Assembly (NCBI RefSeq): GCF_037447015.1
Contig: NZ_JBBIHK010000005.1
Location: forward strand, 15,437-79,436
DNA: 64,000 nt
Direction: 5' to 3'
From: Nitrososphaera sp.
GTDB lineage: Archaea > Thermoproteota > Nitrososphaeria > Nitrososphaerales > Nitrososphaeraceae
In this document: positions 1,590 through 43,674 of the stretch, one piece after another
Layout of the letters: each line of letters begins with the position of its first letter
How positions within the stretch are numbered: position 1 is the first letter of the stretch
Program-made: the position numbers and the translations under genes
Notes under the pieces: generated by a model
The model's database searches: none
What the model saw: the letters and a program-made list of their open reading frames with translations, nothing else
Told to the model about the DNA's origin: nothing

Positions 1590-2126
1590 ATGGCTTCACT
1601 GGATTCAAAAGATCAGCATGAACCGGGCCAGGTACCGGAGGTTGTGCTGGCCAGGTGGGGGACGAGGTTCTGGGCATGGCTAGTGGATTTCATCATAGTA
1701 ACGACTGCGGCAGAGATACTCTTTGCAATAGCGTATTCTCCGCTTGCCTTCCTGCAGGGCGCCGGGGAAGAGGGTGTCAACCCGGCGCTGGGGGCGGCAA
1801 GGTACGCTGTGCAGAGCCTGATGTTCTTTGCATACTGGACATACTTTGAGTCGGCGGCCGCCGGCGCGACAGGGCAGTCAATAGGCAAAAAGCTGCTAAA
1901 GATAAAGACGACTGACCTGTCAGGCAGCAAGGCGCCGGACGTAAAGAGCGCGGCAATCCAGAGCTTTGGCAAGGCGTTCCTGCTGCCAATAGACGTGCTC
2001 CTCGGGTGGATATTCACAAACGACAAGAGGCAGAGGCTGCTGAGCAGGGCTGCAAACACCATAGTGGTCAAGGTTCCTGCAGAAGACGCAGGGACAGGAA
2101 ACGTCAGGTACAGGAAAGACAAGTAA
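1590..2126 (+). CDS. RDD family membrane protein
   Basis: 178 aa. The N-terminal RWGTRFWAWLVDFIIV and two to three TM helices are typical of RDD domain proteins. Confidence 0.7.
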   Translation: MASLDSKDQHEPGQVPEVVLARWGTRFWAWLVDFIIVTTAAEILFAIAYSPLAFLQGAGEEGVNPALGAARYAVQSLMFFAYWTYFESAAAGATGQSIGKKLLKIKTTDLSGSKAPDVKSAAIQSFGKAFLLPIDVLLGWIFTNDKRQRLLSRAANTIVVKVPAEDAGTGNVRYRKDK

Positions 2127-16452: not shown

Positions 16453-16744
16453 GCATGCACATTATTTCGTGCGGTATAATAATCAATTAATTATTTGAGA
16501 ATATCGCTTCTACCAAGCGTCTAATGCAACAAAAGCGTTGCATAACTTGTTGCACAAGCGCGGAGCTTCGAGCTAGTCCCGAAAATCCACAGACACTAAA
16601 CTTCTTTGCAAAGATTCATCAAGTATTACTAACAATTTTTCCGACTTTATTATCTGTTATTTGGTATATCTATCCCCCTACCACGTCACTGTTTCTTCTG
16701 TCAGTTCTTGGTGATGCTACAATCAAGGAGATGATGGATACCTA

Positions 16745-18088
16745 GTGGCTCAGTCATTTGTACAGAGAAAGAAGAGCCGCCTGCGTGTCAAGGGTCTGAA
16801 AGTAAAGGACAGAGAGAAGATCAAAGAAGCTATTGCAATTAGCGTCCAGAACGGCAACTATACAACTAGGGAAATAGGCTTGGACATTGGCAAGGATCAC
16901 ACCACCGTCTCACGCTATCTGACAGAGATGGAAAAGGAAGAAGGTAAATGGGGCATCAGACGCGATGCCAATGGCAACATCGTCATCTCGCTGCAAAAGC
17001 AGCTGGCACAGGAATACAGGCGCCTTGAAAGAGGCGGCGAACCATTCAACCAGCTGCCATCTATACAGAAATGGATAACGTATCTAAAGTCGGGCGGCAT
17101 ACCAGCAACGCGCATCCAGTACATGGTAAACGTCATTCACGGAATCTCGGACCAGCTGATGGTCATGCCAGAGACACTGGTCAGCCACGGAGTACCAATT
17201 GACTCGGCAAGGAGAAAAGAGATAGCTATAGAGTATTGGCGCAATTTCCTTGCATGGTTTAATAGCGCGTATCCTCGGATGCAAAAAACAGGCGCCATCA
17301 ATGTTTATAGAAGCTTTTTGTCAGCTCACAGCGTCAACTTTGCCCATGGCGAAGGCAAGAGGTACGGTCTGTCAACGACTCCTGAGAGGCTCGGAGAATA
17401 CAAAGAAATTATGCTCACGCCAGAGCAGATTGCTGCCATAAACAAACGCCTTGAAAAAGAGAGTGACTGGGAATCCTGGTCGTTTATGAACATCGACCTG
17501 CACACTGGAGCCAGGGCATTTGCAATGGCGTCGATGAACTGGGACAGGATAGCTTTCTCACCTTTATTCAGAGTAGAGCAGTTTGAACCGAAGGTAAAGC
17601 GTGGTGACTGGTACCTGACAAAGGAAGGCAAGTGGTGGGTCAAGTATCCTACAGAAGAGTGCAGGGCTGTTGTCGAGACCGCGCATGACAGGCTGCCAAA
17701 GAAAGAGAGATTTCTGTTTTTTGATGATGCCGGCAGCGACAAGGCAAATGCCCTGCAAGCTTCTTATGTCATGTCAAGGATGGCTGTCAAGTTCAAAAAG
17801 GTATTTTCGGAGCTCGACAAAGCAAGTTGGATTAATGAAAAGACTAGAATATACGCACTAGGGGACGAAGTATACTTTAACGGACACCCTTTGCATTTGT
17901 TAAGGCATACAATGGCACAGTACTATTTGGTAGCCACGAATTGGTCGTTAGCTTATGTGGCAAGCTTGGGCGGGTGGGAGAACACGGAAGTATTGAACAA
18001 GTGTTATGGTGGCATTCCAGAGCACGTTAAAGCACAGATGGCAAAGTCTATTCATGCCAGATTTGATGTTCTTCTTAACCTTCAATAA
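16745..18088 (+). CDS. tyrosine recombinase / phage-type integrase with N-terminal wHTH
   Basis: 447 aa. Catalytic signature elements are DLHTGARAFA (Arg), HLLRHTMAQY (His-x-x-Arg) and LGGWENTEVLNKCYGG (Trp/His ... Tyr). N-terminal HTH is TTREIGLDIGKDHTTVSRYL. Confidence 0.85.
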   Translation: MAQSFVQRKKSRLRVKGLKVKDREKIKEAIAISVQNGNYTTREIGLDIGKDHTTVSRYLTEMEKEEGKWGIRRDANGNIVISLQKQLAQEYRRLERGGEPFNQLPSIQKWITYLKSGGIPATRIQYMVNVIHGISDQLMVMPETLVSHGVPIDSARRKEIAIEYWRNFLAWFNSAYPRMQKTGAINVYRSFLSAHSVNFAHGEGKRYGLSTTPERLGEYKEIMLTPEQIAAINKRLEKESDWESWSFMNIDLHTGARAFAMASMNWDRIAFSPLFRVEQFEPKVKRGDWYLTKEGKWWVKYPTEECRAVVETAHDRLPKKERFLFFDDAGSDKANALQASYVMSRMAVKFKKVFSELDKASWINEKTRIYALGDEVYFNGHPLHLLRHTMAQYYLVATNWSLAYVASLGGWENTEVLNKCYGGIPEHVKAQMAKSIHARFDVLLNLQ

Positions 18089-18583
18089 CCAACGTTGATG
18101 GATATTGATATTGTAGGTTCTATTCATAGACAGGAGCGGTCTTGCATGCTGTAGCCGCTGGTTATCTTGTGCCTTATCTTGTCGAGTTTTGTGCCAGTTC
18201 TCAACCTGCATTTTATGCATCAAAATTACTGGTGCTTCTGTGAGCGAAAAGCCGCAAAAACCGGCAGATTTTGAAATAATAACATTGTTAGTTGCAGGGA
18301 CATCTATCACCCGCAATTTCTGAGTAGTAAGGCGAAGCTCATGGCATTGGGCCTCTATCTCTTGACTGTGTAAAGGGCTGCCAGAAGGACCAAGAAAGAG
18401 ACGACGAAAAGGCACAGAAAATGTTCGAGTCAGGAGCGTTTACGCTGCCAGATGCGCCCACAGGTCAAGCTGACGGCAAATTAAACTAATTTTATTGCTA
18501 GACTCTGCTGTTTGAGCTCTTGCTTTTTCCGGTCCTGAGGAAACAGTCAAAATCTTGCTCTCAATGAAAAACCACGACTAGAT

Positions 18584-19024
18584 TCAGTATTTCAGTATTT
18601 CAATAGTTGCAGCTTCCAAAATAGACTCAAAGCCCTTGCTTACCGACTGGTTCCTCAGGTACTTGGCAAAATCAGTATTAGTGATGATTCCGACTATCTC
18701 TTTAGAGACCGGATCCTTGACCAGAAGGTGACGGACTTTATTTTTCAGCATGATGTCAGAAGCCTGTTCCATGGGTGTATTGGCATCGACATATACTAGT
18801 GGCGGAGATATGGCAATAATCCTATCAGGCTGCAGATCGCGCGAGATAATCCTCACGATATCGCGTTCTGTGAAAATTCCTATGATGTCGTTATTGTCAT
18901 CCGTTATCAGTACTGAGCTGACGTTGTTCTTGTCCATCAATTTCGCTATATCTTTAGCAGTGCTCCTGATATTGATTGTAACCAGCCGTTCATTCATGTA
19001 CCGTTCAACAGTAGTTTGGTTCAT
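18584..19024 (-). CDS. CBS-pair domain protein
   Basis: Two CBS motifs (VSSVLITDDNNDIIGIFTERDIVR and VRHLLVKDPVSKEIVGIITNTDFAK). ATG at 19024 is preferred over the track start at 19069. Confidence 0.8.
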   Translation of the reverse strand: MNQTTVERYMNERLVTINIRSTAKDIAKLMDKNNVSSVLITDDNNDIIGIFTERDIVRIISRDLQPDRIIAISPPLVYVDANTPMEQASDIMLKNKVRHLLVKDPVSKEIVGIITNTDFAKYLRNQSVSKGFESILEAATIEILKY

Positions 19025-19286
19025 GATAGCTAGTACTGAGAGTATCCGTGCATATAAGCTGAATAGCATATGTTTCGTCGCAGGTCATCATTCTTTTTGC
19101 AACCACAGTAGAAGATGGTGGGATGTATACCGAGGAAATTTAGCGAATAAGTAACACGCGTATATATCATGATAGAAAATCAAGATAGGGACTATTGCGT
19201 ATTATCAGGTTTCTTGATAACGACAAGCTTTTACCTTACAAAAAAAGAAAGGAGATGGCAAATTCTGTTACATTAGGCTAAATTTC

Positions 19287-19829
19287 TCATTTTACTTCTA
19301 CTTTGGTGCTTTCTTCTTCCACTTTTGTAGGAGTCTTCTTTGGCAGCTTTACGTTCAGGATTCCGTTACTCATTTTGGCTTCTATTTTTGACGGCACTAT
19401 CTCTTCAGGTATCGGAACTCTGCGGTAAAATGATCTATACGACCTTTCATTATAGACGTAATTCTTTGCCTTTTCTTCTGTCTTTTCCTTCTGTTCGCCA
19501 GTAATCTCGATAGAATGCTTTGTGGCTTTGACATCGATCTTTTCTTTTTCAATTCCTGGCACTTCGACTGATAGCTCATAGTGATCTCCCTTGTCCACCA
19601 TGTCGCACAATGCCTTTCTTATTGCTGTCTGGCCTTCCTCGAACAGGGATGGGAATTCAAAATTCCAATCAAACGGTGAGGACCATGGACGCACGAGTGT
19701 TCTTTCTACTTCACGTCTAAAGTTGTCAAAAATGCTGTCCAGTCTTCTTAGGGCCAAAAATCTGTTTTCCTCTGCTACTTTTGACTCGTTTCTTTTGGAG
19801 ATATCATCAGTTTTTTCGGACGATGTCAT
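19287..19829 (-). CDS. small heat-shock protein (Hsp20/alpha-crystallin)
   Basis: Alpha-crystallin domain: DMVDKGDHYELSVEVPGIEKEKIDVKA ... ERSYRSFYRRVPIPEE ... AKMSNGILNVKLPKK. Confidence 0.9.
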   Translation of the reverse strand: MTSSEKTDDISKRNESKVAEENRFLALRRLDSIFDNFRREVERTLVRPWSSPFDWNFEFPSLFEEGQTAIRKALCDMVDKGDHYELSVEVPGIEKEKIDVKATKHSIEITGEQKEKTEEKAKNYVYNERSYRSFYRRVPIPEEIVPSKIEAKMSNGILNVKLPKKTPTKVEEESTKVEVK

Positions 19830-19880
19830 ATGCAGAGAGAGAAATGCTCGTTGTTATTTTAGTTCTAAGAACATAGTGCA

Positions 19881-19891
19881 ATGCAGTGCAT
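19881..19891. promoter_or_regulatory. palindrome ATGCAGTGCAT in the sHsp/USP divergent promoter
   Basis: ATGC-N3-GCAT, preceded by GTGCA. It lies 52 nt from the sHsp start (19829) and 40 nt from the USP ATG (19931), between two TATA-like boxes. Confidence 0.55.
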
Positions 19892-19930
19892 ACATATTGC
19901 ACATATACGCAGGGTTTGAAAAATTGCAAC

Positions 19931-20431
19931 ATGTCTAAAACAGCTACTTCTACAAAAGCTCAAACCGTAGCTGGGGTGTCCAAGATTCTCGTGCCTCATG
20001 ACGGCTCAGAAGCATCAGACAAGGCACTCGACAAGGCCATAGAATTTGCCAAGGCACTGGGCTCGGAAATAATCCTTCTCAATGTGGTCGACGACCGCTT
20101 CGTGCCGCCCAGCACAACACTTGCGTTTCTGAGCGAAAAGTCCTCTTTGGAAGACGCCAAGACGCAGATAGTCAGACTGCTAAAGCAGGCTGCAGAGGGC
20201 ATGCTGAAGGACAGGATTCAAAAAGTCACCAATCAGGGCATAAAGATGCGGCACATACTGGCGGTAGGGTCGCCGGCAGAGGAGATAGTGGCCATAGCAG
20301 ACAACGAAAAAGCAAGCCTGATAATTATGGGTTCCAGGCGGCTCTCGACAAAGGAAAAGATAAAGGCACTTGGCAGCGTCGCAAGGAGGGTTTCAGAGAC
20401 ATCCTCCATTCCTGTAATGATAGTGAATTAG
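19931..20431 (+). CDS. universal stress protein (UspA family)
   Basis: KILVPHDGSEASDKALDKAIEFA ... IIMGSRRLSTKEKIKALGSVARRVSETSSIPVMIV contains the ATP-binding G-x2-G-x9-GS motif. ATG at 19931 is about 26 nt after a TATA-like box. Confidence 0.85.
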   Translation: MSKTATSTKAQTVAGVSKILVPHDGSEASDKALDKAIEFAKALGSEIILLNVVDDRFVPPSTTLAFLSEKSSLEDAKTQIVRLLKQAAEGMLKDRIQKVTNQGIKMRHILAVGSPAEEIVAIADNEKASLIIMGSRRLSTKEKIKALGSVARRVSETSSIPVMIVN

Positions 20432-20606
20432 TAGGGACATTTACTACTCAGCAACAACAACAATAACAGCAGAGCAGTGCCAGTCATTTTTTAAAAACAA
20501 TTTTTTGGTTTTTACTCTCAATCAAAGCATGGCGCAAAAAGAAAGAGGGTAAAAGGAGGAAGGAGAGAATAAGAAACAGCAGAGCCTCTGCTTGTTTGTT
20601 TCTTTC

Positions 20607-21248
20607 TTACTCGACCCTTATTTCCTTCCCTTTGGGCTGCTTTTTCTTCCCAAAAGTTATTTCCAGTATGCCGTTGTTGAAGGTTGACTTGGCAGTATCG
20701 GTGTCAGCCTCAGGAGGCAGCTCTATCGTTCGGCGGTACTTTCTCTGCGGCGTTTCTGCCTTTACCTCAATAGACTTGTCGTAGACATTCACCTTGACAC
20801 TGTCTTTGGTGACGCCGGGCATTTCCACAACCACCTTGATGTCTTTGTCTGACGTAACGACGTCTGCAAGTGGCTCCCTCTCAGAAGTAAGCTCTGGTGT
20901 CGTCCCAACACCGCCTGCACCTCCAAGAGACTTGACGTTTCCAAACTCTCTTACCCTTGGCTTTCCATCCGGCCCTATAGTGACAGAATACCCATAGACT
21001 ATCGGGCCTACTTCTCTTACTTTTCCGCCGCCCTCTGTTTCGTACTCACGAACAAGGTCCTTTGGAAGTTTTTCTGTGTCACGGAATGCGTCTTCGAACA
21101 TCTTTTCCATTTCTCTGCGCATTTCTTCAAATTCGCTAAATATGCTGCCGCTTCCTTCCCTTCCAAAGCCAAACCTTGTCATCCTGGCTGGAAAGAATCT
21201 CCTGAACCATTCATCAAATTCTTTATCTTTAGAGCTCATCAAATTCAC
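20607..21248 (-). CDS. small heat-shock protein (Hsp20 family) with long N-terminal arm
   Basis: 213 aa. ADVVTSDKDIKVVVEMPGVTKDSVKVNVYDKSIEVKAE ... KSTFNNGILEITFGKK is an alpha-crystallin domain. The GTG at 21248 fits leaderless geometry, and an alternative ATG lies at 21239. Confidence 0.85.
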   Translation of the reverse strand: MNLMSSKDKEFDEWFRRFFPARMTRFGFGREGSGSIFSEFEEMRREMEKMFEDAFRDTEKLPKDLVREYETEGGGKVREVGPIVYGYSVTIGPDGKPRVREFGNVKSLGGAGGVGTTPELTSEREPLADVVTSDKDIKVVVEMPGVTKDSVKVNVYDKSIEVKAETPQRKYRRTIELPPEADTDTAKSTFNNGILEITFGKKKQPKGKEIRVE

Positions 21249-21299
21249 CTAGCTCAATTGATGCCGCTGTTTGCTCTTAAGCATTTCCAACGCGGTGCC

Positions 21300-21310
21300 A
21301 TGCACAGCAT
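21300..21310. promoter_or_regulatory. palindrome ATGCACAGCAT in the sHsp / small-TM-Cdc48 divergent promoter
   Basis: ATGC-N3-GCAT, preceded by GTGCC. It lies 52 nt from the sHsp start (21248) and 39 nt from the ATG at 21349. Confidence 0.55.
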
Positions 21311-21348
21311 GCGCGTTCTTTTTTTATTCTAATGAACAGGATAATCCT

Positions 21349-21582
21349 ATGAACAAGAGGACACTAGATGCCTTGACAAGATGGGTTCCGCTGAGCGCAG
21401 TAGCATCAGGCCTGTCATTGGCTATTGGCTCAATACTCAACATCCCACAGATGAGCACGGTTATGGCAGCAACTGTCGCAGGAGTTACAGTATTTGCGGG
21501 CTTTGCCATGAGGTCTTATGGTAAGGGATCCAAAGAGTACTATGAAGGTGCTCAAGAGAAACAGGGCACGATTAGCTCCTAG
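21349..21582 (+). CDS. small membrane protein (two predicted TM helices)
   Basis: MNKRTLDALTRWVPLSAVASGLSLAIGSILNIPQMSTVMAATVAGVTVFAGFAM plus a charged tail. The ATG is about 26 nt after the T-rich TATA box, and the gene ends 39 nt upstream of Cdc48. Confidence 0.55.
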   Translation: MNKRTLDALTRWVPLSAVASGLSLAIGSILNIPQMSTVMAATVAGVTVFAGFAMRSYGKGSKEYYEGAQEKQGTISS

Positions 21583-21621
21583 TTATTAGTGAGAGAATAG
21601 TAGGAGGAGATGTAAACTATC

Positions 21622-23895
21622 ATGCCAGACAATAACAATAATAACGCGGATAAACAGAAAGGAAGTAAAACGAGTTTTTCTTTACGCGTGGCTGAAGCTT
21701 CTGGAAAAGATGTCGGAAGAAAAATCGCCAGAATAGATCCAAAAGTTACGGAAGAACTTGGAATTGCTACAGGCGACGCAGTAGAGATATCTTCTGCCGG
21801 CGGTGGCCGCAAAACCACAGTTCTAAACTGGCCTGCATACCAGCAGGATCGTGGTAAAGGCCTAATCCGCATCGACGGCTATGTAAGAAACAAGCTTGGC
21901 GTGGGAATCAACGACACTGTCGAGGTCAAAAAGGTGGCCGCAAGGCAAGCCGGAAAAGTCACTCTGGCTCCTACCGAGCCTCTCCGAATAGTCGGGGCCG
22001 AGGAATACTTGACAGGGTTTCTAAGCGGGCAGCTTGTAACAAAGGGCGACACCATTCCTCTGAACATCATGGGCCGGCGCGTCGACTTGGTGGTCATTTC
22101 AACCAATCCGTCAGGTCCTGTAATAATATCTGACTCTACAGAAGTAATGATTTCAGAAGAATCCGCCAAGGCCGCGGCGGCTTTGAAGGAAGGCGGCATG
22201 CCGTCCATAACTTATGAGGACATTGGCGGCTTGAAGAACGAGGTCGCCAAAGTGCGCGAAATGATCGAGCTTCCGCTAAGACACCCGGAGCTGTTCAAAA
22301 GGTTGGGCGTCGAGGCACCAAAGGGAGTCATTCTCCACGGTCCTCCTGGAACGGGCAAGACCCTGCTGGCAAAAGCCGTTGCAAATGAAACGAACGCCAG
22401 CTTTTACACCATCGGCGGACCTGAAATCATGAGCAAGTACTATGGCGAAAGCGAGGAACGATTAAGGAGCATCTTCCAAGAAGCCGAAAAGAATGCCCCC
22501 TCAATCATATTCATTGATGAGCTGGACTCGATCGCCCCAAAGAGGGAAGAAGTGTCCGGCGAGGTGGAAAGGAGAGTGGTAGCGCAGCTGCTGTCGCTGA
22601 TGGACGGACTTGCCTCGCGCGGCAAGGTTGTAGTTATTGGAGCCACCAACAGGATAAATGCAATCGATCCAGCCCTTAGGAGGCCAGGAAGGTTCGACAG
22701 GGAAATAGAGATAGGTGTCCCTGACAGGGACGGCCGTCTAGAAATACTGCAGATCCACACGCGCGGCATGCCCTTTGCAGAAGACGTGAACTTGGAAAAG
22801 CTTGCAGACATCTCGCATGGCTTTGTCGGCGCGGACCTCCAAGCTCTGGCCAGAGAGGCGGCCATGCGCGCGCTACGCAGGGTGCTTCCCGAAATCGACC
22901 TGTCTGCCGAAAGCATTCCCGGCGAGACTCTCAGCAAGATAGTAGTCAAGATGCAGGACTTTATGGACGTCATAAAGGAGATGGAGCCCTCTGCAATGAG
23001 GGAAGTGTTTGTAGAAGTCCCAGATGTCAAGTGGGAAGACATCGGCGGCCTAGAAGACGTAAGGCAGGAGCTCATGGAAGCCGTTGAATGGCCCCTGAAG
23101 TACCAGGGCGTGTTTTCCTATGCAGATGCAACGCCGCCAAAGGGGATCCTGCTCTATGGTCCGCCTGGAACCGGCAAGACTCTGCTGGCAAAAGCGGCAG
23201 CAAACGAAAGCGAGGCCAACTTTATCAGCATCAAGGGCCCAGAGCTTTTGAGCAAGTGGGTTGGCGAGTCAGAAAAGGGAGTGAGGGAGGTATTCAGAAA
23301 AGCAAGGCAGGCAGCTCCTTGCATAATATTCTTTGACGAAATAGATGCCATAGCGCCTACGAGGGGCGGGGCGGGACTTGGAGGAGACTCGCACGTTACA
23401 GAGCGCGTGATCAGCCAGATGCTGACCGAGCTTGATGGCCTCGAAGTGCTGACAAACGTGGTAGTAATTGCCGCAACCAACAGACCGGACATTGTAGATC
23501 CTGCGCTGCTGAGACCGGGCAGGTTCGACAGGCTGCTGTACATCGCCCCACCAGACCGAAACGCAAGGCTTCAAATAATAAAAATCCACACGAGAAAGAA
23601 ACCCTTGGCCGCGGATTTCGACATTGAAAAGCTGGCATCCATGACTGACGGGTACACGGGGGCCGACATTGCGGCTCTGTCTTCTGCTGCCGTGATGCTT
23701 GCCCTCAGAGAACACATCTCAAAATACAAAGACCCAAAAGAAGCCGAGAAGAACGCCAAAGAGCTCAAGATACACATGAAGCATTTTGAAGAGGCAATGA
23801 AAAAGATAAGGCCGCTGTCAGCGCAAGAGCTTGAAATGTACAAGAATGTTGCAGAGAGGTTCAGCAACGTAAAGCCCTCGTCTTATCAAAGATGA
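21622..23895 (+). CDS. cdc48: Cdc48/VCP-type AAA+ ATPase (copy 1, low-GC)
   Basis: 757 aa. It has an N-domain, two Walker A motifs ([13 protein letters not shown] twice), Walker B motifs ([16 protein letters not shown]) and second-region-of-homology arginines ([22 protein letters not shown]). Confidence 0.95.
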
Positions 23896-23957
23896 GGGCG
23901 CGCAAGCTAGCAAACGTCGGATCGCATAGAAATTTCTGACCTGCCACTGATGATAGA

Positions 23958-24185
23958 GTGAGCAAAGAAATTATGTCTGCGGACAAAGAAGCAGCCGAAC
24001 GTCACCGAAATAGGAGTAATCTGCTCCTAGCAGGACTGGGGTTCATGGCGGCAGTTATGTTATGGAGGGCGGCGTGGGAGATCACTGCAGAATTGATGTC
24101 TCCATATGAGAGTCTGATCATTGGTCTGGTCCTGCTTGCCGGAATTGCCTATATCGAAAGAGACTTTATCTACAGGCTATTCTAG
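23958..24185 (+). CDS. small membrane protein (two predicted TM helices)
   Basis: 75 aa. LLLAGLGFMAAVMLWRAAW and LIIGLVLLAGIAYI. Co-oriented with and 62 nt downstream of Cdc48. Confidence 0.5.
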   Translation: MSKEIMSADKEAAERHRNRSNLLLAGLGFMAAVMLWRAAWEITAELMSPYESLIIGLVLLAGIAYIERDFIYRLF

Positions 24186-24303
24186 GTCTGCCCTACTGAC
24201 TTGCTCATTCCGACATGGCATTTCTTGCTAACCGCAGAGGCAGGCAGGGAGGACGCAGGCGTATATGATGCGGAAGCAATTTTAGACATCTGAGAAATGG
24301 GCA

Positions 24304-24576
24304 TTATCGTTCAATGTACTCGTCTACCTCTTCGATAACCTTTACGACTCTTGCAGTTTTGAACAAATGCCAATGCGTCAGAAAATACTCCTTGGCGCGG
24401 TCCTTTGATAGGAATAAAAAAGGCCCAAAATCGCGCCATTCATTCCTGTTGTCAATGTACTGGATCTTGTACCTTACAGAGATTATTTTTTCATTTTGAG
24501 ACTCCAATGATGCTATGCGCTTTATGCTACTAGAAATATTTTCTGTAGAACACAGGGTAATAATGCTGATTATCAA
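24304..24576 (-). CDS. hypothetical protein
   Basis: 90-aa ORF in an A+T-rich stretch where long ORFs are not expected by chance. No motif recognised. Confidence 0.4.
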   Translation of the reverse strand: MIISIITLCSTENISSSIKRIASLESQNEKIISVRYKIQYIDNRNEWRDFGPFLFLSKDRAKEYFLTHWHLFKTARVVKVIEEVDEYIER

Positions 24577-24678
24577 ATACCGGATAGTGCATCGCGCGAG
24601 CTATCCGCCAACTTATTAGAATGCACTCCATCATATTTTCTGAGAATGAAAAAATCTCCTTTGCAGGTAGGCTAGTAT

Positions 24679-25050
24679 ATGACATCCAAAATTGTTTCTG
24701 CAGACTATGATCTACCTTTCAAAGATGCTGTAACTATCATGGCCAAGAGTACGATAGGAAACCTTGTGATAAAAAATGGCGGAGGTAATGTAGTAGTAGG
24801 CTTGCTAACAGAACGCGAAATCTTGGCACATCTGTACAGGTACAAGAAAATTCCTGACCTTCAATGCAGGGCAATCAAACTCACGGGATTTACGAAAATA
24901 TCACCTGAAACAACCATAGAAGAAGCTGCGCGAAGAATGATCCTTTCAAAACATCGTCTGCTAGTTTATGACAATTTGGATCAAAAGGATGAAAGGGTGG
25001 CAGGCATTATTACAGCATCCGATCTTGTCAGAGCATTTTTTACTGCGTGA
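24679..25050 (+). CDS. CBS-pair domain protein
   Basis: 123 aa with two CBS motifs (IGNLVIKNGGGNVVVGLLTEREIL and KHRLLVYDNLDQKDERVAGIITASDLVRAF). Confidence 0.75.
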   Translation: MTSKIVSADYDLPFKDAVTIMAKSTIGNLVIKNGGGNVVVGLLTEREILAHLYRYKKIPDLQCRAIKLTGFTKISPETTIEEAARRMILSKHRLLVYDNLDQKDERVAGIITASDLVRAFFTA

Positions 25051-25075
25051 CAAAAACCCTGACTTGGATAAGGTA

Positions 25076-25440
25076 ATGTCAAAAAGGGTGGCCACCCTTC
25101 AAGATTGGGCATCAATAAACGACGCCGTCAGAGTATTGCACAGGAGAAGAATAGGTAGCGTGATAGTTACGACTTGGGATGGATTCTACCAAGGGATTTT
25201 CACTGAACGTGACCTCCTCAGCAAGGTCTTGGTGGAGGACAAGCTTCTGGACAAGAGGGTAGGAGAATATTGTTCGTGGTTCATGCTGACTGCGCAGAGT
25301 GGCATACGTGCGAGGGGTGCTGCAAAGCTAATGTTTGCGAATGACATAAAACGGTTACCTATCACAAGGATGGCAGAATTATTGGGATCGTCACAGCAAG
25401 GGATTTAGTTGAAGCGTATTCTTTGCCGGCTGCTCATTGA
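25076..25440 (+). pseudogene. CBS-pair gene with a 1-nt frameshift near the 3' end
   Basis: The frame from ATG 25076 gives RIGSVIVTTWDGFYQGIFTERDLL ... NDIKRLPIT, then derails into RMAELLGSSQQGI and a stop. The +1 frame from 25366 reads KDGRIIGIVTARDLVEAYSLPAAH with a stop at 25438-25440, which is the expected end of the second CBS motif. The shift is in ACAAGG at 25364-25369. Confidence 0.7.
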
Positions 25441-25562
25441 CATGCAGCTACTTGTTTTAGAGCAAATTGGCTTGCCAGTCTGCATCAAAATTGGCTTTGG
25501 AACGGGCTGCTCAGGCTCCAAGTTGCCATGTGTAGAAGAATTGAATCATATATCATCCTAGT

Positions 25563-26126
25563 TTACTTGATCCTTGAAACAGAGAATCTACTATATGATA
25601 GCAGGAATCCCATTCCGCCTGCCAATATTCCTGCTATCAATACCAATATTGCTATCGCAATGGGTTCCACAAAAGGTGCCATCAACGCATGTACCTGGGC
25701 AGGATCAAATCCCTTGCCGCCTACTGTTTCTGGCAATGCAGCTGCTCCTCCAAAATAACCTGCATACATCATTAACCCCGAGGCGGCTGACACTCCGGTG
25801 TTCATGAGAACTAGGTGCGACCACGCGAGCGATTTGGGAATCTTCGATCCAACATCGCTGCCACCCAGAAAGTGATAAAAAATGGCAGATACCGCGACAG
25901 CTATTACTCCTACTGTTATGTATATGATATAACCGAATGTGAACCAGGTGCCGGCTCCACCTGCAGCGATCACCCTAGACACCTCTGGCTTCATGAATGT
26001 TGCCTGTCCAAGAACTAGAACTGCAGTAAGTCCTACGATTATTGCCCCTTGGATTATGGCTGCAATTATGAACCTCTTTGCCCACAAGTTGGCTTGCTCC
26101 GCCATAGTTTTTCCTTCCATGTACAA
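25563..26126 (-). CDS. polytopic membrane protein, unknown function
   Basis: 187 aa with about 5 TM helices (IIAAIIQGAIIVGLTAVLVL, TFGYIIYITVGVIAVAVSAIF, and others). The start could be ATG at 26120 or 26105. Confidence 0.65.
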   Translation of the reverse strand: MYMEGKTMAEQANLWAKRFIIAAIIQGAIIVGLTAVLVLGQATFMKPEVSRVIAAGGAGTWFTFGYIIYITVGVIAVAVSAIFYHFLGGSDVGSKIPKSLAWSHLVLMNTGVSAASGLMMYAGYFGGAAALPETVGGKGFDPAQVHALMAPFVEPIAIAILVLIAGILAGGMGFLLSYSRFSVSRIK

Positions 26127-26129
26127 CCA

Positions 26130-26333
26130 TTAGTCGACTTCAGTTTTTATTATCCGGGTGTACTTTGCAATGCACTGAATTAGTCTGATGATATGCGATA
26201 ACGTCTTTTCCAGAGTCACTTCTCTGTACGGCACAGAACAGAATATGGAATCCAAGAAAGATGGATTCCTAGCTAAATGCATCTGACCAAATGGCACATC
26301 CTGATTCAATTTGTATTCTAAATTGCAGAGCAT
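26130..26333 (-). CDS. hypothetical small protein
   Basis: 67-aa ORF ending 3 nt before the next gene start. No motif, so support is weak. Confidence 0.3.
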   Translation of the reverse strand: MLCNLEYKLNQDVPFGQMHLARNPSFLDSIFCSVPYREVTLEKTLSHIIRLIQCIAKYTRIIKTEVD

Positions 26334-26512
26334 TGCAGAAAAATCGCACTAGTAAATAGGATCATGGCACCTTGGTGTTATGAAAAAGAAAGATTGCTTC
26401 GCCACGAAGCTCCCAAGATCGGCAGATAGAATATGAAAACCCGGAATGAATCTGAAGCTAGAAGGATAATGATTGGAATTTTGACAGTACTTGCGATTGC
26501 CATATAATTGCA

Positions 26513-26722
26513 GTGCTCATGTTTCTTGGAATACTTGCGGTAGCGATGTTGCTCTTTAATCCCTTGATATTTGTACTAATTGCTATCGTTATAGTACTCG
26601 CCTATTACATGAATAAAGAGCGAAAGAATTGGCATTCTCGTACACGCGCAAGCCAGAACAGATCATCATATTCTGCTGACCGCTCCTCTTCATATGCGCA
26701 ATACGCTTGCAGAGCAGATTAA
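26513..26722 (+). CDS. small membrane protein
   Basis: 69 aa. MLMFLGILAVAMLLFNPLIFVLIAIVIVLAYYM followed by a basic/Ser-rich tail. Confidence 0.4.
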   Translation: MLMFLGILAVAMLLFNPLIFVLIAIVIVLAYYMNKERKNWHSRTRASQNRSSYSADRSSSYAQYACRAD

Positions 26723-26816
26723 CAATAATCGTTACTTCTAGTAGCATGAGTATTTGTATGTCATACAAGAGGTATATATTGAGAATTGTAAAACAATAGC
26801 TGATCATGAGAACACG

Positions 26817-28235
26817 ATGACCCAACACATGAAGACCACTCCCTCATTTCCGCAGATATTTCCAGCAATGTTTGAGCTGTACGTCAATAGCATCAAGGTA
26901 AATCAGTTCTACGCAGACTTGTTCGCAAGGACATTCCGGCAAGCAGTAGATATTGTGTCGTCACAGCAAGAAAAAGCACAAGAGAAGGGTAATAATATTA
27001 GCCTGTACGAAGTCTGGCTTAAATTAACGGACGCCGAGCTTGAAAAGGATCTCCGGTCAGAACCGTTCCTGACCCTTATCTCCAACCTCACAAAAGCTGG
27101 TGTGAACCTGAGGAAGGATATGAGAGAAGCAGGATTCCCTGTCCTTTTTCTCGATTGGCTCTTTGATACGTACGTAAGAAGTTTTATGGTATTTGCCTCA
27201 ATACCAAAGGATTACGACTTTGCAGCATTTGACATAGTATGGGCCAAGGGCAAGACAAGGCTTCTCCACTATCGGGCGACACCTGCTGACCGCTATGACA
27301 AATCTACTAGCAGGCCCCCTTTGCTTGTGGTATATGCCCCGATAAACAAATTCCACATCATGGACATAAGCCCCGACAGGAGCGTGGTGAGGAATCTCAT
27401 GTCACACGGCATCGACGTATACTTGCTTGATTGGGGATTTCCTGATTGGTCGGACTCTGAAATGTCTCTGGGCGACTATGTCAGGCATATCGGGAGTGCG
27501 ATTGAAGCAATAAAGAAGGAGAGTGGTCATGAAAAAATATCGATATTGGGATATTGCTGGGGCGGAATAATCTCTCTGATATATTCTGCACTGAACGACA
27601 ACAAGAACGTAAAGAAGCTGATTCTGATGGCCCAGCCAGTTGACTTTAGCAAGGACAAGACAATCCTTGCAACGTGGGCAAGAGCTGTAGACGTGGACAA
27701 GATGATGGACGAATTTGGCCACATGGATGGTGCAGTGCTGGACATTGCTTTCCTGATGCGCAACCCTCCGCGATATACGTTTGACAAATATTTGAAATTC
27801 TTTCAGAAAGTTGGTGACGCAAAGTTCGTAAGCAACTTTTTTGCTGTAGAGAACTGGCTCCATGATACACCAATGCTTCCCGGCAGGATGTACAGCCAGA
27901 TCATCAATGACTGCTACAAGAACAATCTCCTTATCTCGGGAAACATGCAAGTCGATGTTGTTGGCGGTGATGGGAGTGAGGGGGTTGTTAATAGCGAAGC
28001 TGAAAAGAAGAAGATTGACCTCAAGAAGATAGAGATGCCAATACTGACTATTGTGGCAGAGCAAGACGATCTGGTATCGCCAGAATCGACTCTTGCTATT
28101 AACGAGCACGTGTCAAGCAGTGACAAAACTGTTCTTAAAATGCCGGGCGGCCACGTTGGTCTGTGCATCAGTTCTCATGCACACTCGAAGCTGTGGCCAG
28201 AAGTGGCAAAGTGGATACTGCATTCAAATACATAG
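26817..28235 (+). CDS. phaC: poly(3-hydroxyalkanoate) synthase, class III PhaC-like, with N-terminal extension
   Basis: Lipase-box variant ISILGYCWGGIISL (G-x-C-x-G), alpha/beta-hydrolase core and C-terminal GGHVGL, similar to class III PhaC as I remember Allochromatium PhaC. The region before the conserved core is roughly 90-100 aa longer. Confidence 0.85.
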   Translation: MTQHMKTTPSFPQIFPAMFELYVNSIKVNQFYADLFARTFRQAVDIVSSQQEKAQEKGNNISLYEVWLKLTDAELEKDLRSEPFLTLISNLTKAGVNLRKDMREAGFPVLFLDWLFDTYVRSFMVFASIPKDYDFAAFDIVWAKGKTRLLHYRATPADRYDKSTSRPPLLVVYAPINKFHIMDISPDRSVVRNLMSHGIDVYLLDWGFPDWSDSEMSLGDYVRHIGSAIEAIKKESGHEKISILGYCWGGIISLIYSALNDNKNVKKLILMAQPVDFSKDKTILATWARAVDVDKMMDEFGHMDGAVLDIAFLMRNPPRYTFDKYLKFFQKVGDAKFVSNFFAVENWLHDTPMLPGRMYSQIINDCYKNNLLISGNMQVDVVGGDGSEGVVNSEAEKKKIDLKKIEMPILTIVAEQDDLVSPESTLAINEHVSSSDKTVLKMPGGHVGLCISSHAHSKLWPEVAKWILHSNT

Positions 28236-28564
28236 CAATAGATGCGCACATTGTAGCTCCTTTACTGCAGAAGGAAGATGTAGGAGGTGGAGAGAAGGGT
28301 GTATTGTTATCTTTTGACATTCTTGTATACGCCAAGGACATGCACGCATTGGGGTAATGCAATGTACCTGTGTGCTCAATGTATTTTTGGATGCTCCCTT
28401 GTCGACCATCCCGACGACACTTCTAGAACATAAATTGGCACATGCATCAAAAAATCGCTTTTGGTCAGTCCACGCATACTTACCTAGTTAGTACGGCGTT
28501 ACTACCGGGTTTATCTTCTTCGTATGTTTTTCTTTCCATAACCCAAGAGAAGGTAGAAGACAAC

Positions 28565-28765
28565 ATGGCAAGACTAGTAAAAAAAGAGGACAAAGGACCG
28601 CTGGCAGTCAAGGTAGGTAACGAGACAAAATGGGTCTGCATGTGCGGGCTTTCTGCAAATCAGCCCTTCTGTGATGGCTCGCATAAGAAGACTCTTGACG
28701 AACAGGAAGGCAAGGTATACATCTACAACAAGGACGGTACGAGGACAGAAGCCAAGGTGGAGTAG
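28565..28765 (+). CDS. CDGSH iron-sulfur domain protein
   Basis: 66 aa. CMCGLSANQPFCDGSH matches the C-x-C-x2-S-x3-P-x-CDGSH signature. ATG at 28565 is preferred over the track start at 28442. Confidence 0.85.
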   Translation: MARLVKKEDKGPLAVKVGNETKWVCMCGLSANQPFCDGSHKKTLDEQEGKVYIYNKDGTRTEAKVE

Positions 28766-29125
28766 TTTTGGTTCCAAAAGGTCAGGCGGTATATATCCTG
28801 AACAGACGTGCGAGGAAAGGCAGAAAGGATCATTCATTTACCAAACTTACTTGCAAGTCTGAGCGCAAGCCACCTTCGGATTATACCGAGAAAAATTATG
28901 AAATGAAGTGATATAAGTCAGTGACATCAAAGAAGCCTCGACATATTTCCAATCATGACGGTCTTTTTATTTTAATTTGATGATTTTGATGAAACTATCG
29001 ATAACGATGTCACTTCTTATTGACATATTGTATTTGGGTTGCGTATGAAAGATACATTTGCAAGGCCCTCCCACACAATGCAACGGAGCGCAGAATGAGT
29101 GACGATGGTGAGGTGCCTGCGAGCG

Positions 29126-29180
29126 ATAACGGACGTAAACGGACGTCAAGTCTTCACCCAACATACACGTATAACGGACG
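29126..29180 (+). repeat. three copies of AACGGACG (two as ATAACGGACG) within 55 nt
   Basis: ATAACGGACGT at 29126-29136, AAACGGACGT at 29137-29146 and ATAACGGACG at 29171-29180. These iteron-like sites sit in a non-coding gap 45 nt from the direct repeat at 29224. Confidence 0.6.
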
Positions 29181-29223
29181 GAACCGCCCGCAGGCAGGTA
29201 TTGTAATATCAAATAGAGTATTT

Positions 29224-29239
29224 TAATTTTGCAGTCAGC
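29224..29239 (+). repeat. 16-nt direct repeat, inner copy (TAATTTTGCAGTCAGC)
   Basis: Identical to 29397-29412. It is followed by an 8-bp stem hairpin, AGACGACC (29242-29249) pairing with GGTCGTCT (29262-29269). Confidence 0.75.
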
Positions 29240-29393
29240 AAAGACGACCAGCTATTGATGCGGTCGTCTGAAGACCTAGAACATTTGGATGATATATCCT
29301 TGCTACACAAGCATAGTTTCTGCTGTTGTTGCATATAATATTGCACCCGGTCTGTCCGCAACTTCTTGTGCAACAAAATCGAAAGATAATTAA

Positions 29394-30005
29394 TTATAAT
29401 TTTGCAGTCAGCGCCTTGACGCCTTCACAGGCTGCACTTTTGCCGCCCGTGGCCTTGCACAAAAGGGCAGTGATGTTGTCTATCTCGGCGTTCATGGCCT
29501 TGCCTATGGCAGAGTTTGGGTTGCCAAGCTCTTTCAGCACGTCGGCGTGCGACTTTTCCTGTATCAGCTCGGGGCTGAACCCTGCGCCCACCTGCATGTA
29601 CTGGCCGTCTATCAGGAGAAAAGGGATCATCTGGTCGGGGTTGTACATGTCCAGTATCTCGTAATCCTTGTCGTCCAGCTCTTGCAGCGGCTCAAAGTTG
29701 CGGTCTGCAGTCTCTTTGCCCATGAACTCGACGGTATCGCTCTCGAACCTGGCACGTGCCAGGTTGAACGTCGGGACGTTGAGGTACTTTTCGTCGTGGC
29801 CGGCGCTCTTGTCCTCCACCAGGCCGTCCCACTTGCCAAACCGCTCCAATGCTTTCACGATTGCCCACCGCTCGGCCGCGCAGAACGGGCAGAACCCTGC
29901 GCCCATGAAATACACGAGAGACTTGCCGCCGGGCCTCTTTAACGGTTGATCGGTAACGTGCATGAACTTGCCAAGGACCCTTTTTGGAACGAAATTGCTG
30001 CTCAC
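29394..30005 (-). CDS. DUF929-like thioredoxin-fold protein (CPFC motif)
   Basis: 203 aa. VYFMGAGFCPFCAAERWAIVKAL has the CxxC in a thioredoxin-like context. It is GC-rich like the core genome. Confidence 0.75.
   Translation of the reverse strand: MSSNFVPKRVLGKFMHVTDQPLKRPGGKSLVYFMGAGFCPFCAAERWAIVKALERFGKWDGLVEDKSAGHDEKYLNVPTFNLARARFESDTVEFMGKETADRNFEPLQELDDKDYEILDMYNPDQMIPFLLIDGQYMQVGAGFSPELIQEKSHADVLKELGNPNSAIGKAMNAEIDNITALLCKATGGKSAACEGVKALTAKL
29397..29412 (+). repeat. 16-nt direct repeat, outer copy (last five codons of the gene at 29394-30005)
   Basis: TAATTTTGCAGTCAGC lies immediately next to the stop codon (29394-29396) of the minus-strand DUF929-like gene. Confidence 0.75.
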
Positions 30006-30164
30006 GTCCGGCAGAGGGTGCGGATTTTTATTAAATGTTTTTAGTGGTAATACTAAAGAAACATTCTACTACGATATTGCCAATTAACCCACCATTTTCG
30101 CCAATAGAGGAATCTAGCAGAAGAATCTTATGCTTTAAAAACACCGTGAAGCATATGGAAGATA

Positions 30165-30881
30165 ATGTCTAGGAAGATTTTGATAGGCATTGCAGGCATC
30201 ATTATCGCGGTTTCTTCTCTAACAGCAATATTACTTTGGGCTGCAGAAGAATATTCTGCCAGAGACGTTCGTATGACCACAGGAGAAACTATAACGTTAC
30301 AAGGAAAGCTTTACCCCTCTGACATGGAATTTGACGGTTCCGGCAATCTGTGGGTCGCAAATGGAACAAGAAAATCCCTGCTCATGTACGAGCCCAGGTA
30401 CAAAGGTCAGGATGTCACTTTCGATTTTTCCAGACCGCTGGTAGAATTTAGTGCGAGCAGACCTAATCATGATCGTATGCTCAGCGCAGTCACCATAGAA
30501 TTTGATCGTGTCGGCAATCTGTGGGCTGCCGATTCTGGCATAGGTGTAATTCAGATGTTCTCAGATGGCGACCACGACCCTCTTACATCAAGGTTTTCAA
30601 ATGCTCAGAGTCCCTTGTTGACGTTGAACGCCACTGTCACTTTAGATGATGTCTCAAGAGTTCCCTATGACGCAAAGATAACGGACAAAGGATCGTACTG
30701 GCCGATCTCCGTTGCGATAGACCCCAGAGGGAATCTCTGGGCAGATGACCTCTACGGGAGGCGCATACTCATGTTCTCTGACGGGGATGGCGACCCTTCC
30801 ACGACAAATTTTGTGAGCGGGCAAAACGCTACCAGCGTCTACATAGTTTCACAGCCCCAATTAATTTGGGAATCCGGCTAG
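30165..30881 (+). CDS. membrane-anchored beta-propeller (NHL-like) repeat protein
   Basis: N-terminal anchor ILIGIAGIIIAVSSLTAILLW. Repeated (S/V/R)GNLW(V/A)A(N/D) blades: GSGNLWVANG, VGNLWAADSG, RGNLWADDLYG. Confidence 0.7.
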   Translation: MSRKILIGIAGIIIAVSSLTAILLWAAEEYSARDVRMTTGETITLQGKLYPSDMEFDGSGNLWVANGTRKSLLMYEPRYKGQDVTFDFSRPLVEFSASRPNHDRMLSAVTIEFDRVGNLWAADSGIGVIQMFSDGDHDPLTSRFSNAQSPLLTLNATVTLDDVSRVPYDAKITDKGSYWPISVAIDPRGNLWADDLYGRRILMFSDGDGDPSTTNFVSGQNATSVYIVSQPQLIWESG

Positions 30882-31147
30882 CCAAGCTCTGCGGTTTTCT
30901 ATTCCCGCCGCACTTTGCCGCGCATACAATGGAAGAGATATAAAAGAACAATTGTTTTGGCAGTTTTCCACTGGAAACACGCGCTCGCGGTCCACAACAA
31001 GAGAGGCAGTAGGGAGGAAATACGCTGCTGCCACACGCATCCACAAATCCGCTCCACGGTAGCAACATTACCACAATAATCCTGTTCTAGTGGCATACTC
31101 GTAAAGATACATTAACCCCCTGACGTTTTACCGGACTGTCAAAAAAG

Positions 31148-42275: not shown

Positions 42276-43040
42276 GTGATCGGCTGCAACAAATGTTTAA
42301 ATATAGATTTAAATTCATACTCGGTGCTTTTGGGTCTGAAGGAAGAGGCGATTGAGAGCAGAGAGGAGGTCGTCTCCTCGAGGAACCGGGTCCTAAACGC
42401 CCTTTCGCAGCTTGGCGTCAACGTTACAGCGTTTGAAGGGCTCACCCTTGACCAGCTGACAGGCATATACATCGGCCTGCTGAGGGCCCAGCTCCCCGGC
42501 CCAAAAGATAGGCGGCAGCAACTTGATCCGGATGCGGGCCTCCTTTCTTTCAAGGACAGGCAGATACTTGGTATGATCGTTTCGTCAAAAAGGCCCGTTT
42601 CTTCCGTCCAGATTTCCCGCAAGCTTGGCATGCCGCTGACCACTGTCCAGAGGCGCAGGAAAAAGCTTGAAGAGGTATACCTGGAAAGCAGGCACGAGCT
42701 CAGGATCGATAGGCTTGGCTGGAAGACCGGCCACGTCTTTGTATCTGTTGCAGCAGCAAGCCCGGCAGAGGTGGGCAAGGCAATCCTTGGCATGCCCGGC
42801 GTGATCTCGGCGGTGCGCGTGATCTCTGGCAACAAGATAGACATCATAGCGATGGTGGCGTTCCGCAGCACGGCCGAGCTTGCAGAAATAATCGGCAGGA
42901 TCAGGTCTACGGCCGGCGTGCAGGAAGTGTCGTGGAGCGAGGTGATCGGGCCGATCGGCACAAACAGCGACTTTATCATCCAGACGAGAATAGACGGAGG
43001 AAAGCAAGAAGGGGTAACATCAGCTGCGGCAGCCAGGTAA
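42276..43040 (+). CDS. Lrp/AsnC-family regulator with N-terminal extension of about 90 aa
   Basis: HTH LSFKDRQILGMIVSSKRPVSSVQISRKLGMPLTTVQRRRKKLEE followed by a RAM-like domain. Paralogous to 43675-44451. Confidence 0.75.
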   Translation: MIGCNKCLNIDLNSYSVLLGLKEEAIESREEVVSSRNRVLNALSQLGVNVTAFEGLTLDQLTGIYIGLLRAQLPGPKDRRQQLDPDAGLLSFKDRQILGMIVSSKRPVSSVQISRKLGMPLTTVQRRRKKLEEVYLESRHELRIDRLGWKTGHVFVSVAAASPAEVGKAILGMPGVISAVRVISGNKIDIIAMVAFRSTAELAEIIGRIRSTAGVQEVSWSEVIGPIGTNSDFIIQTRIDGGKQEGVTSAAAAR

Positions 43041-43314: not shown

Positions 43315-43674
43315 GTCTGCTGGTGCAGGTCCGCTGTCGCCCCGTCCCACGTCGTTGATTTTTCCAGCAGCTATTTTAACAATTGCGAATAGACAGCAAT
43401 AAAGATCGCCTTTTTTTGCACGCCAGCTTGTTTTTTGCCACATAGGCCCGATTTTGATGCAGATTTTTTGCGCTAACAAGCGCCCTCTGGCAGCGTGTGT
43501 CTTGAGTGAGGAATTTGTTACTAGTCTTGAGCAGCGTGCGCCACATCGGTTAAAACCGGTTTAATTGCCCACACCGAATGCGCTGCATAGCAAACAGCCT
43601 CACAGTATTTGCAGAACGAGGGCAGCTTGCCTATATGAGAATCTTCTATTTTTCATAGATAGAAGGTGAAGTAA

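Follow-up and report, generated by a model that had tools for sequence, protein, structure and literature searches.

A TGCA-tetramer box as a candidate cis-element of stress-gene promoters in Nitrososphaera-like archaea

Two divergent promoter regions in a stress-gene cluster of Nitrososphaera sp. share a short element, here called the TGCA box, in which TGCA tetramers recur with a 5-bp period. To judge from its distribution among related genomes, the element very probably represents a genuine cis-regulatory site, belonging to a stress regulon specific to the lineage. The cluster lies in a stretch of 64,000 nt (GCF_037447015.1, contig NZ_JBBIHK010000005.1, positions 15,437-79,436 of the forward strand), referred to below as the window. 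The box is conserved in sequence, constrained in position, restricted to intergenic DNA and associated with stress genes; that it binds a protein, in which direction it regulates and what signal induces it are inferences. In all likelihood it would function in regulation, in one way or another, by binding a protein, and a stress regulator of a subgroup of the soil ammonia-oxidising archaea (AOA) probably docks on it. The fuller statement, that it is an upstream activating site of a stress regulon, we put at a probability of about 0.45, and favour over a repressor operator. The initial annotation of this DNA had proposed an ATGC-N3-GCAT palindrome as the operator shared by the two promoter regions; that proposal is partly supported, in that the observation is real and partly mis-measured, and the interpretation right in spirit and wrong on the definition of the motif.

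No report of the TGCA box was found in the literature searched, nor anything comparable for AOA, and comparison of the related loci makes it a new, well-supported candidate cis-element. It bears on how heat-shock and general stress genes are turned on in archaea other than the Euryarchaeota; for the heat-shock regulon of Sulfolobus, a protein-binding motif was not found (PMC10653856). It provides a sharply defined element of 14-24 bp at a fixed promoter position, predicts a co-regulated set (sHsp, USP, Cdc48, CBS proteins, RtcB/PRTase and small unknown proteins) and offers a ready bait with which to purify the regulator by DNA affinity. The annotation of stress islands in soil AOA genomes would benefit as well, and the case would illustrate a regulon recruiting members, with sHsp2 and Cdc48 boxed only in the window's lineage.

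The box in two divergent stress promoters

The window derives from a Nitrososphaera-like ammonia-oxidising archaeon: its nearest protein matches are named Nitrososphaera sp., and the nearest genome locus is the metagenome-assembled genome contig JBDUUM010000030. In the first of the two spacers the small heat-shock protein (sHsp) gene sHsp1 (Hsp20, 180 aa; 19287-19829, minus strand; PF00011, E=2e-22; orthologues start MT(S/T)SEK) diverges from a universal stress protein (USP) gene (166 aa; 19931-20431, plus strand; PF00582, E=2e-32). In the second, sHsp2 (Hsp20 by Pfam, 210 aa; 20607-21239, minus strand) diverges from a two-gene unit, in which a small membrane (TM) protein of 77 aa (21349-21582, plus strand), without a match in the Pfam search and kept in the related loci L001 and L081, precedes a Cdc48/VCP-type AAA+ ATPase of 757 aa (21622-23895, plus strand; Pfam CDC48_N, CDC48_2 and two AAA domains). 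Coordinates and Pfam matches thus bear out the divergent arrangement described earlier. The two sHsps are distant paralogues with separate orthologue sets.

The 11-nt palindromes lie where the initial annotation placed them, ATGCAGTGCAT at 19881-19891 after GTGCA and ATGCACAGCAT at 21300-21310 after GTGCC, and three of the four distances given for them hold, 52 nt to sHsp1, 40 nt to USP and 39 nt to the TM gene. The distance to sHsp2, also given as 52 nt, is 61 nt, because the gene starts at ATG 21239 and not at GTG 21248, a start assigned on the grounds that 18 of 18 homologues begin MS(S/I)RDRD, corresponding to ATG 21239. All four TATA-like boxes are present as described, those of sHsp1 (TAAAATAA, 19854-19861, minus strand, centred 28 nt before ATG 19829), USP (CATATAC, 19902-19908, plus strand, centred 26 nt before ATG 19931), sHsp2 (GCTTAAGAG, 21274-21282, minus strand) and the TM-Cdc48 unit (TTTTTTTATT, 21319-21328, plus strand, centred 25 nt before ATG 21349). 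The gap from TGCA box to TATA-like box is alike in the two sHsp promoters, 15 nt for sHsp1 and 13 nt for sHsp2.

Leaderless geometry, proposed for all four units, fails for sHsp2, since a Shine-Dalgarno GGTGA, seen in the sequence and recurrent in many orthologues, stands at 21246-21250 on the minus strand and suggests a 5' leader of ~10-13 nt. The sHsp2 genes of the window and L001 both have a leader of ~10 nt with this GGTGA, and lineage J (introduced below; L081 2680-2710) lacks the segment and is leaderless. The comparison of window 21239-21252 with L081 reads as a recent switch between leadered and leaderless initiation within one orthologue.

Within the window the numbers are modest. The 11-nt core is found three times where 1.75 are expected, a count also attained in 25 of 100 shuffles; an ungapped match of 13/16 between two such spacers, whatever the register or strand, was seen in 15 of 300 shuffles (p ~0.05). 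The 16-mer pattern GTGCNATGCNNNGCAT occurs twice against 0.009 expected, for a pattern defined post hoc. As had been observed, the remainder of the two spacers is dissimilar, with 29% identity outside the 16-nt box, the random level, and 13/16 within it. An unenriched core and a match reached by 5% of shuffles are what would be seen if the resemblance were due to chance or were the functionless remnant of a duplicated promoter. Since the window-only statistics are weak, significance rests on the related genomes.

The same gene order is found in two other lineages, L (L001, sHsp2 93% identical) and J (L081-L084, sHsp2 89%), which with the window's own (W) give six orthologous sites, two per lineage. 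In window orientation, site W1 is ATAGTGCAATGCAGTGCATACATA, a conserved 24-mer at 19872-19895, and J1 is identical to it over all 24 positions, the rest of the spacer being 47% identical. L1 (ACAGTGTCGTGCATTGCATTCCTA) keeps RTGCA-N-TGCAT in a spacer otherwise ~55% identical by eye and not alignable by blastn. Between sHsp2 and the TM-Cdc48 unit the sites are W2 (GCGGTGCCATGCACAGCATGCGCG), L2 (ACAGTGCAATGCACAGCATACATA) and J2 (GCGGTGCACTACACTGCACGCGTG), and the CTTAAG core of the sHsp2 TATA-like box is conserved in W, L and J as well as in distant orthologues. The palindrome is broken in two of the six sites, L1 (GTGC-ATT-GCAT) and J2 (CTAC-ACT-GCAC), so cannot be the conserved unit. Across all six, TGCA-like tetramers recur every 5 bp, with at least two intact per site, and the unit conserved on this comparison is therefore better written as three TGCA tetramers of 5-bp period, TGCA-N-TGCA-N-TGCA, than as ATGC-N3-GCAT. 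A common cis-element between the divergent stress promoters, the substance of the shared-operator proposal, thus stands on comparative evidence, and its palindromic definition does not.

So defined, the box in the centre of the sHsp1-USP spacer is a full match (TGCAATGCAGTGCA, 12/12, 19877-19890), and that in the centre of the sHsp2-TM-Cdc48 spacer is degenerate (TGCCATGCACAGCA, 10/12, 21296-21309), the orthologous boxes of L2 (TGCAATGCACAGCA) and J2 (TGCACTACACTGCA) being better at 11/12 each. The consensus is TGCA-W-TGCA-S-TGCA, often GTGCAATGCAsTGCAT, and sometimes four or five units are present (L085 1218-1241, L089 1844-1867). In a position weight matrix (PWM) each of the three units has 1.1-1.7 bits per position and the spacers have none, a fourth unit being weakly present, and matches are concentrated at offsets -5, 0 and +5 and, less strongly, at +/-10. 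At some sites the outer pair is intact and the middle unit degraded (TGCA-TGGCAC-TGCA in L092, L098 and L101; also J2), and others keep two adjacent units (TGCAaTGCAgTGTA).

Distribution among relatives and in the window

To the comparison of close relatives we added contigs fetched for several members of a graded series of sHsp1 homologues, in which metagenome relatives account for at least 13 loci. Whether orthologous promoters carry the element has a divided answer. Among sHsp1-type promoters (55-100% amino acid identity, many samples) 14 of 16 have a box matching TGCANTGCANTGCA at 10 or more of 12 positions, a score with a chance of 0.002 in a shuffled 100-nt promoter, and the distance from the end of the box to the ATG is 33-49 nt (median 40), an interval that includes a TATA-like box. 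In 62 sHsp2 promoters of other Nitrososphaerales, those of 80 loci whose upstream region was usable, there is no enrichment, the best TGCA-triple score being distributed as in shuffles. A search for the exact ATGC-N3-GCAT in the 200 nt upstream of sHsp2 orthologues at 80 loci found it only in the 93% relative. A Cdc48 gene of L088 has a box 54 nt upstream. An ancient origin of the element in sHsp2 promoters is ruled out by the 80-locus search and the 62-promoter scores, and since those promoters are not enriched, sHsp2 and Cdc48 would be recent members of the regulon, specific to W, L and J.

The box is also confined by position. It often lies mid-spacer in divergent intergenic regions of ~100 bp, 35-56 nt from both start codons, its proximal edge ~40 nt before the start codon and 9-15 bp upstream of the flanking TATA-like boxes (range across loci 6-15 bp), and in nearly all cases a TATA-like box stands between it and the start codon. 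Intergenic and coding counts were made on loci with proper gene calls; a cruder count of TGCA-N-TGCA based on open reading frames (ORFs) was set aside as uninformative, the ORF caller having left 38% of the DNA 'intergenic'. In six gene-called loci the intergenic DNA (10.5 kb) holds 19 boxes and the coding DNA (48.2 kb) holds 2; most lie 27-56 nt away from a start codon on at least one side. In four held-out loci, scanned with a PWM trained elsewhere, there are 9 matches in 18.4 kb of intergenic and none in 62.7 kb of coding DNA, 7 of the 9 falling in L106 before CBS, sHsp, USP, DLH, POR and TRAM genes. Box-bearing loci contain 41 boxes of at least 11/12 in 214 kb, against 0.2 expected from shuffles, and sHsp2-anchored loci of other Nitrososphaerales and Nitrosopumilales contain one in 516 kb. 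This last figure and the unenriched sHsp2 promoters indicate that the element is specific and does not belong to promoters in general. Scanning public collections with the motif by itself was rejected as an approach, since 14-15 specified bases would produce hundreds to thousands of chance matches.

Besides sHsp1-type genes, which often stand in an operon with two CBS proteins, the genes with an upstream box encode CBS-domain proteins, USP, PRTase-RtcB, NAPRTase, a DLH-MgtE unit, DUF1059, a pyridine-nucleotide-disulphide oxidoreductase, pyruvate:ferredoxin oxidoreductase, a TRAM protein and small Cys-rich or DUF2171-like proteins. At L087 9736-9948, L088 503-709, L086 5677-5904 and L104 9677-9904, the gene on the other side of the sHsp1 box, divergent from sHsp1, encodes one of these small proteins, either Cys-rich of 68-70 aa (CTC..C...C....C.CC) or DUF2171-like of 75 aa.

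A PWM trained only on other loci ranks W1 as the top match in the window (22.7) and gives W2 9.5. Five window matches score 14 or more, against 0.23 expected, all of them intergenic, and the spans matched beyond W1 and W2, likewise all intergenic, are 26157-26183, 26320-26341, 1534-1555 and 43575-43596. The element had been taken to serve four transcription units; the regulon is larger, and in the window alone includes at least two to four further promoters. The box at 26166-26179 (TGCAATGCACTGAA, 11/12) lies ~39 nt upstream of a membrane-protein gene (25563-26126, minus strand) with a TATA-like box between, and that at 26324-26337 (TGCAGAGCATTGCA, 11/12) is intergenic and is followed by a TATA-like box and a 21-codon ORF. 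A candidate outside the island described below, at 1538-1551 (TGCGCTGCAAAGCA, 10/12, PWM 16.2), is 38 nt upstream of an RDD-family membrane-protein gene (1590-2126, plus strand). A weak candidate at 43579-43592 (TGCGCTGCATAGCA, 10/12, PWM 12.8) precedes an Lrp/AsnC-like gene (43675-44451, plus strand) in an atypical geometry, ~40 nt from its TATA-like box, and includes the window's third copy of ATGC-N3-GCAT.

A natural negative control is provided by the second, housekeeping Cdc48 paralogue (47498-49699, minus strand), 48% identical to the island copy, which lies outside the island in the high-GC part of the window, close behind another gene, and has no TGCA box before it.

How the box might act

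We propose that in a subgroup of the Nitrososphaerales a stress regulon comprises sHsp1-type Hsp20, USP, CBS proteins, PRTase/RtcB and small Cys-rich or DUF2171-like proteins, to which sHsp2 and the TM-Cdc48 unit would have been added in the window's lineage. A sequence-specific DNA-binding protein, probably a winged-helix oligomer, would contact TGCA units 5 and 10 bp apart, so that one central site would govern both divergent promoters simultaneously, most likely as an upstream activating site assisting recruitment of TBP and TFB under stress. Activation is favoured because the box lies upstream of the B recognition element (BRE) and TATA box on both sides. Archaeal activators such as Ptr2, TFB-RF1 and GvpE act upstream of BRE/TATA, whereas archaeal repressors, Phr included, as a rule occupy the TATA box itself or a site downstream of it. 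The position directly upstream of BRE/TATA that marks the Ptr2 and TFB-RF1 sites is also that of the TGCA box, and the GvpE site is central between the divergent gvp promoters, as the TGCA box is between its two. The motif itself differs from all three.

Several observations weigh against this proposal. The loci were selected for carrying sHsp genes, so the apparent composition of the regulon is biased toward sHsp neighbourhoods, and many of the sites come from short, possibly incomplete metagenome contigs. The 62 sHsp2 promoters of other lineages score as shuffled sequence does, and W2, at a PWM score of 9.5, is degenerate and by itself would not be called. No transcription-factor gene is present in the stress cluster, whose small ORFs have no DNA-binding Pfam match. 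Counting specifically against activation, Phr and HSR1, the heat-shock regulators known from archaea, both repress (PMC10653856).

The same element could accordingly be a repressor operator, on which a stress-labile regulator of the Phr/HSR1 type, seated on the central box, would occlude both BRE/TATA elements by its size or by oligomerising and be released under stress. We think this less likely than activation, though it is the strongest of the alternatives. The only characterised archaeal heat-shock regulators, Phr of Pyrococcus/Thermococcus and HSR1 of Archaeoglobus, repress, and their shared core is a cis-element common to the promoters of an sHsp and a Cdc48-like AAA+ ATPase (PMC10653856), the same pair as in the window; the box-TATA gaps of 9-15 bp are short enough for a bulky oligomer to reach the BRE, and arrays of 3-5 units would permit spreading. 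Yet the box stands upstream of both TATA boxes and overlaps neither a TATA box nor a transcription start site (start sites as inferred), whereas the Phr and HSR1 sites lie over the TATA box or start site; a Phr repressor bound there, or downstream, keeps RNA polymerase from being recruited. Nor are their consensus sequences present: a relaxed regular expression for the Phr operator, reportedly TTTA-N3-AC-N5-GT-N3-AAAA-like in the form given by Keese et al. in 2010, has no match on either strand of either spacer, and the HSR1 palindrome CTAAC-N5-GTTAG is absent from both. No gene for a Phr or HSR1 homologue occurs in the 64-kb window. The host differs too, a mesophilic member of the TACK/Thermoproteota, as does the regulon, which also takes in USP and CBS proteins; we know of no Phr/HSR1-like regulator in the TACK/Thermoproteota.

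A palindrome in the position typical of a repressor, between TATA box and start codon, does exist in a sister clade, and it differs from the TGCA box. In sHsp2 orthologues of a Nitrosocosmicus-like clade ATTGTAAT-N4-ATTACAAT is well conserved within the 40 nt that precede the start codon, after the TATA box and ahead of the Shine-Dalgarno sequence or start codon (L037, L039, L046, L056, L061-L064, L071 and L072). It looks like a separate, clade-specific sHsp operator.

The box shares its TGCA half-site with that of Ss-LrpB, an Lrp/AsnC-family protein of Sulfolobus whose binding box is 5'-TTGCAAAATTTGCAA-3', with half-sites separated by 5 A/T bp (PMC1802622). The likeness extends to a TACK host and an array of regularly spaced boxes (PMC1802622), and a 15-bp palindrome with TGCA half-sites is present in the TGCA box, its units holding the 1.1-1.7 bits per position given above. 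The half-sites of Ss-LrpB are, in contrast, 9 bp apart centre to centre, and the outer TGCA units are 10 bp apart with a third TGCA in the centre. In form the box also recalls the eukaryotic heat-shock element (HSE), whose nGAAn pentamers, contiguous and inverted, bind trimeric HSF: in each, three or more 5-bp units adjoin one another upstream of a chaperone gene's TATA box, and one degenerate unit is tolerated. The unit is TGCA and not GAA, and the resemblance would be one of form only, an analogy. The promoter motifs of Nitrososphaera viennensis under Cu limitation (PMC7785015) were considered and are unrelated to the TGCA box.

Much the boldest version of the activating site would make the box the operator of the first dedicated stress/heat-shock transcription system of the TACK/Thermoproteota, built like the eukaryotic HSE, read by an oligomeric winged-helix activator and controlling the sHsp and Cdc48 core together with USP and the CBS energy-stress proteins, its autoregulated factor being the small winged helix-turn-helix (wHTH) protein of L087/L106 or an Lrp-like protein (both described below). 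We regard it as a long shot.

A further alternative, somewhat less probable again, is that a stress-specific TFB or TBP paralogue, and not a classical transcription factor, recognises the box, which would then act in promoter selectivity; the precedent is heat-shock control directed by TFB in haloarchaea. Several TFB paralogues are encoded by Nitrososphaerales, and the distance from box to TATA box is short and near-constant. A TFIIB gene lies 7 kb from the box cluster in L087, and control of a heat-shock promoter by a general transcription factor has been described for Halobacterium (PMC2396416). The box, however, spans ~-40 to -55, past the usual BRE, and is symmetric, one copy serving two opposite promoters; its gap to the TATA box ranges over 6-15 bp, whereas contact of the BRE type requires fixed spacing and orientation.

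Very improbable is a feature of the DNA itself without a dedicated regulator, be it an alternating purine-pyrimidine tract or cruciform that would sense structure or temperature, or else clustered TGCA sites for methylation or restriction. W1 and W2 do lie, by eye, within long alternating purine-pyrimidine runs (GTGCATACATAT, CATGCGCGT), TGCA is self-complementary, and L085 has a perfect 10-N5-10 inverted repeat at the box position. What is conserved, however, is the TGCA tetramers and their 5-bp phase, and not the flanks or the potential to form a hairpin, and the tie to specific gene classes is better explained by a regulon. TGCA is moreover undepleted in coding DNA (3120 copies in 640 kb, ~1/3 of them intergenic), which argues against restriction-site avoidance. 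The chance resemblance or promoter remnant that the window by itself would allow is effectively refuted by the comparative data, given 41 boxes where 0.2 would be expected, 28 in intergenic and 2 in coding DNA on the gene-called loci, a distance to start codons that stays fixed in orthologues as remote as 55% identity, and spacer flanks at random identity (29%) beside sHsps that are only distant paralogues.

Regulator leads and the low-GC island

For the regulator that would bind an upstream activating site there are only two leads. The first is a small winged-helix protein of 74-77 aa, encoded by the last gene of the sHsp1-CBS-CBS operon (L087 11932-12165, L106 10958-11182), which matches HTH_45/HTH_20 under the Pfam cut-offs, has no homologue in the window and no significant relative in the PDB. 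It also adjoins sHsp genes in other lineages (L028 1307-1528, L048 4064-4258), and is a candidate sHsp-linked regulator. The second is a tandem pair of paralogous Lrp/AsnC-like wHTH genes in the window, 42276-43040 and 43675-44451, the latter standing behind the weak box at 43579-43592.

Behind the box at 26324-26337 there is only the 21-codon ORF, starting at 26365 (region to 26430), and 26324-26430 may hold a small gene not yet annotated, encode a non-coding RNA or be what is left of a decayed gene; an Rfam search of window 16-32 kb gave no RNA family. At L088 a CBS-PhaC operon stands behind the equivalent box.

The stress cluster lies inside a low-GC stretch of ~16.5-31 kb, with 40-50% GC against 55-62% elsewhere in the window. 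The island (16500-31000) opens with a weak tyrosine-integrase-like ORF (16745-18088; PF00589, E=1e-4, under the Pfam cut-off), and its cargo is the entire stress cluster, CBS proteins, a PhaC-like hydrolase, a CDGSH zinc-finger protein and DUF929. Its boundaries show neither a tRNA nor att-like direct repeats, and it may be an old integrated stress island. A conserved 90-aa protein without a Pfam match (24304-24576, minus strand; also L085 8436-8708) accompanies the stress cluster and carries the motif RYK(I/V)QY.D.R..EWR.FG.

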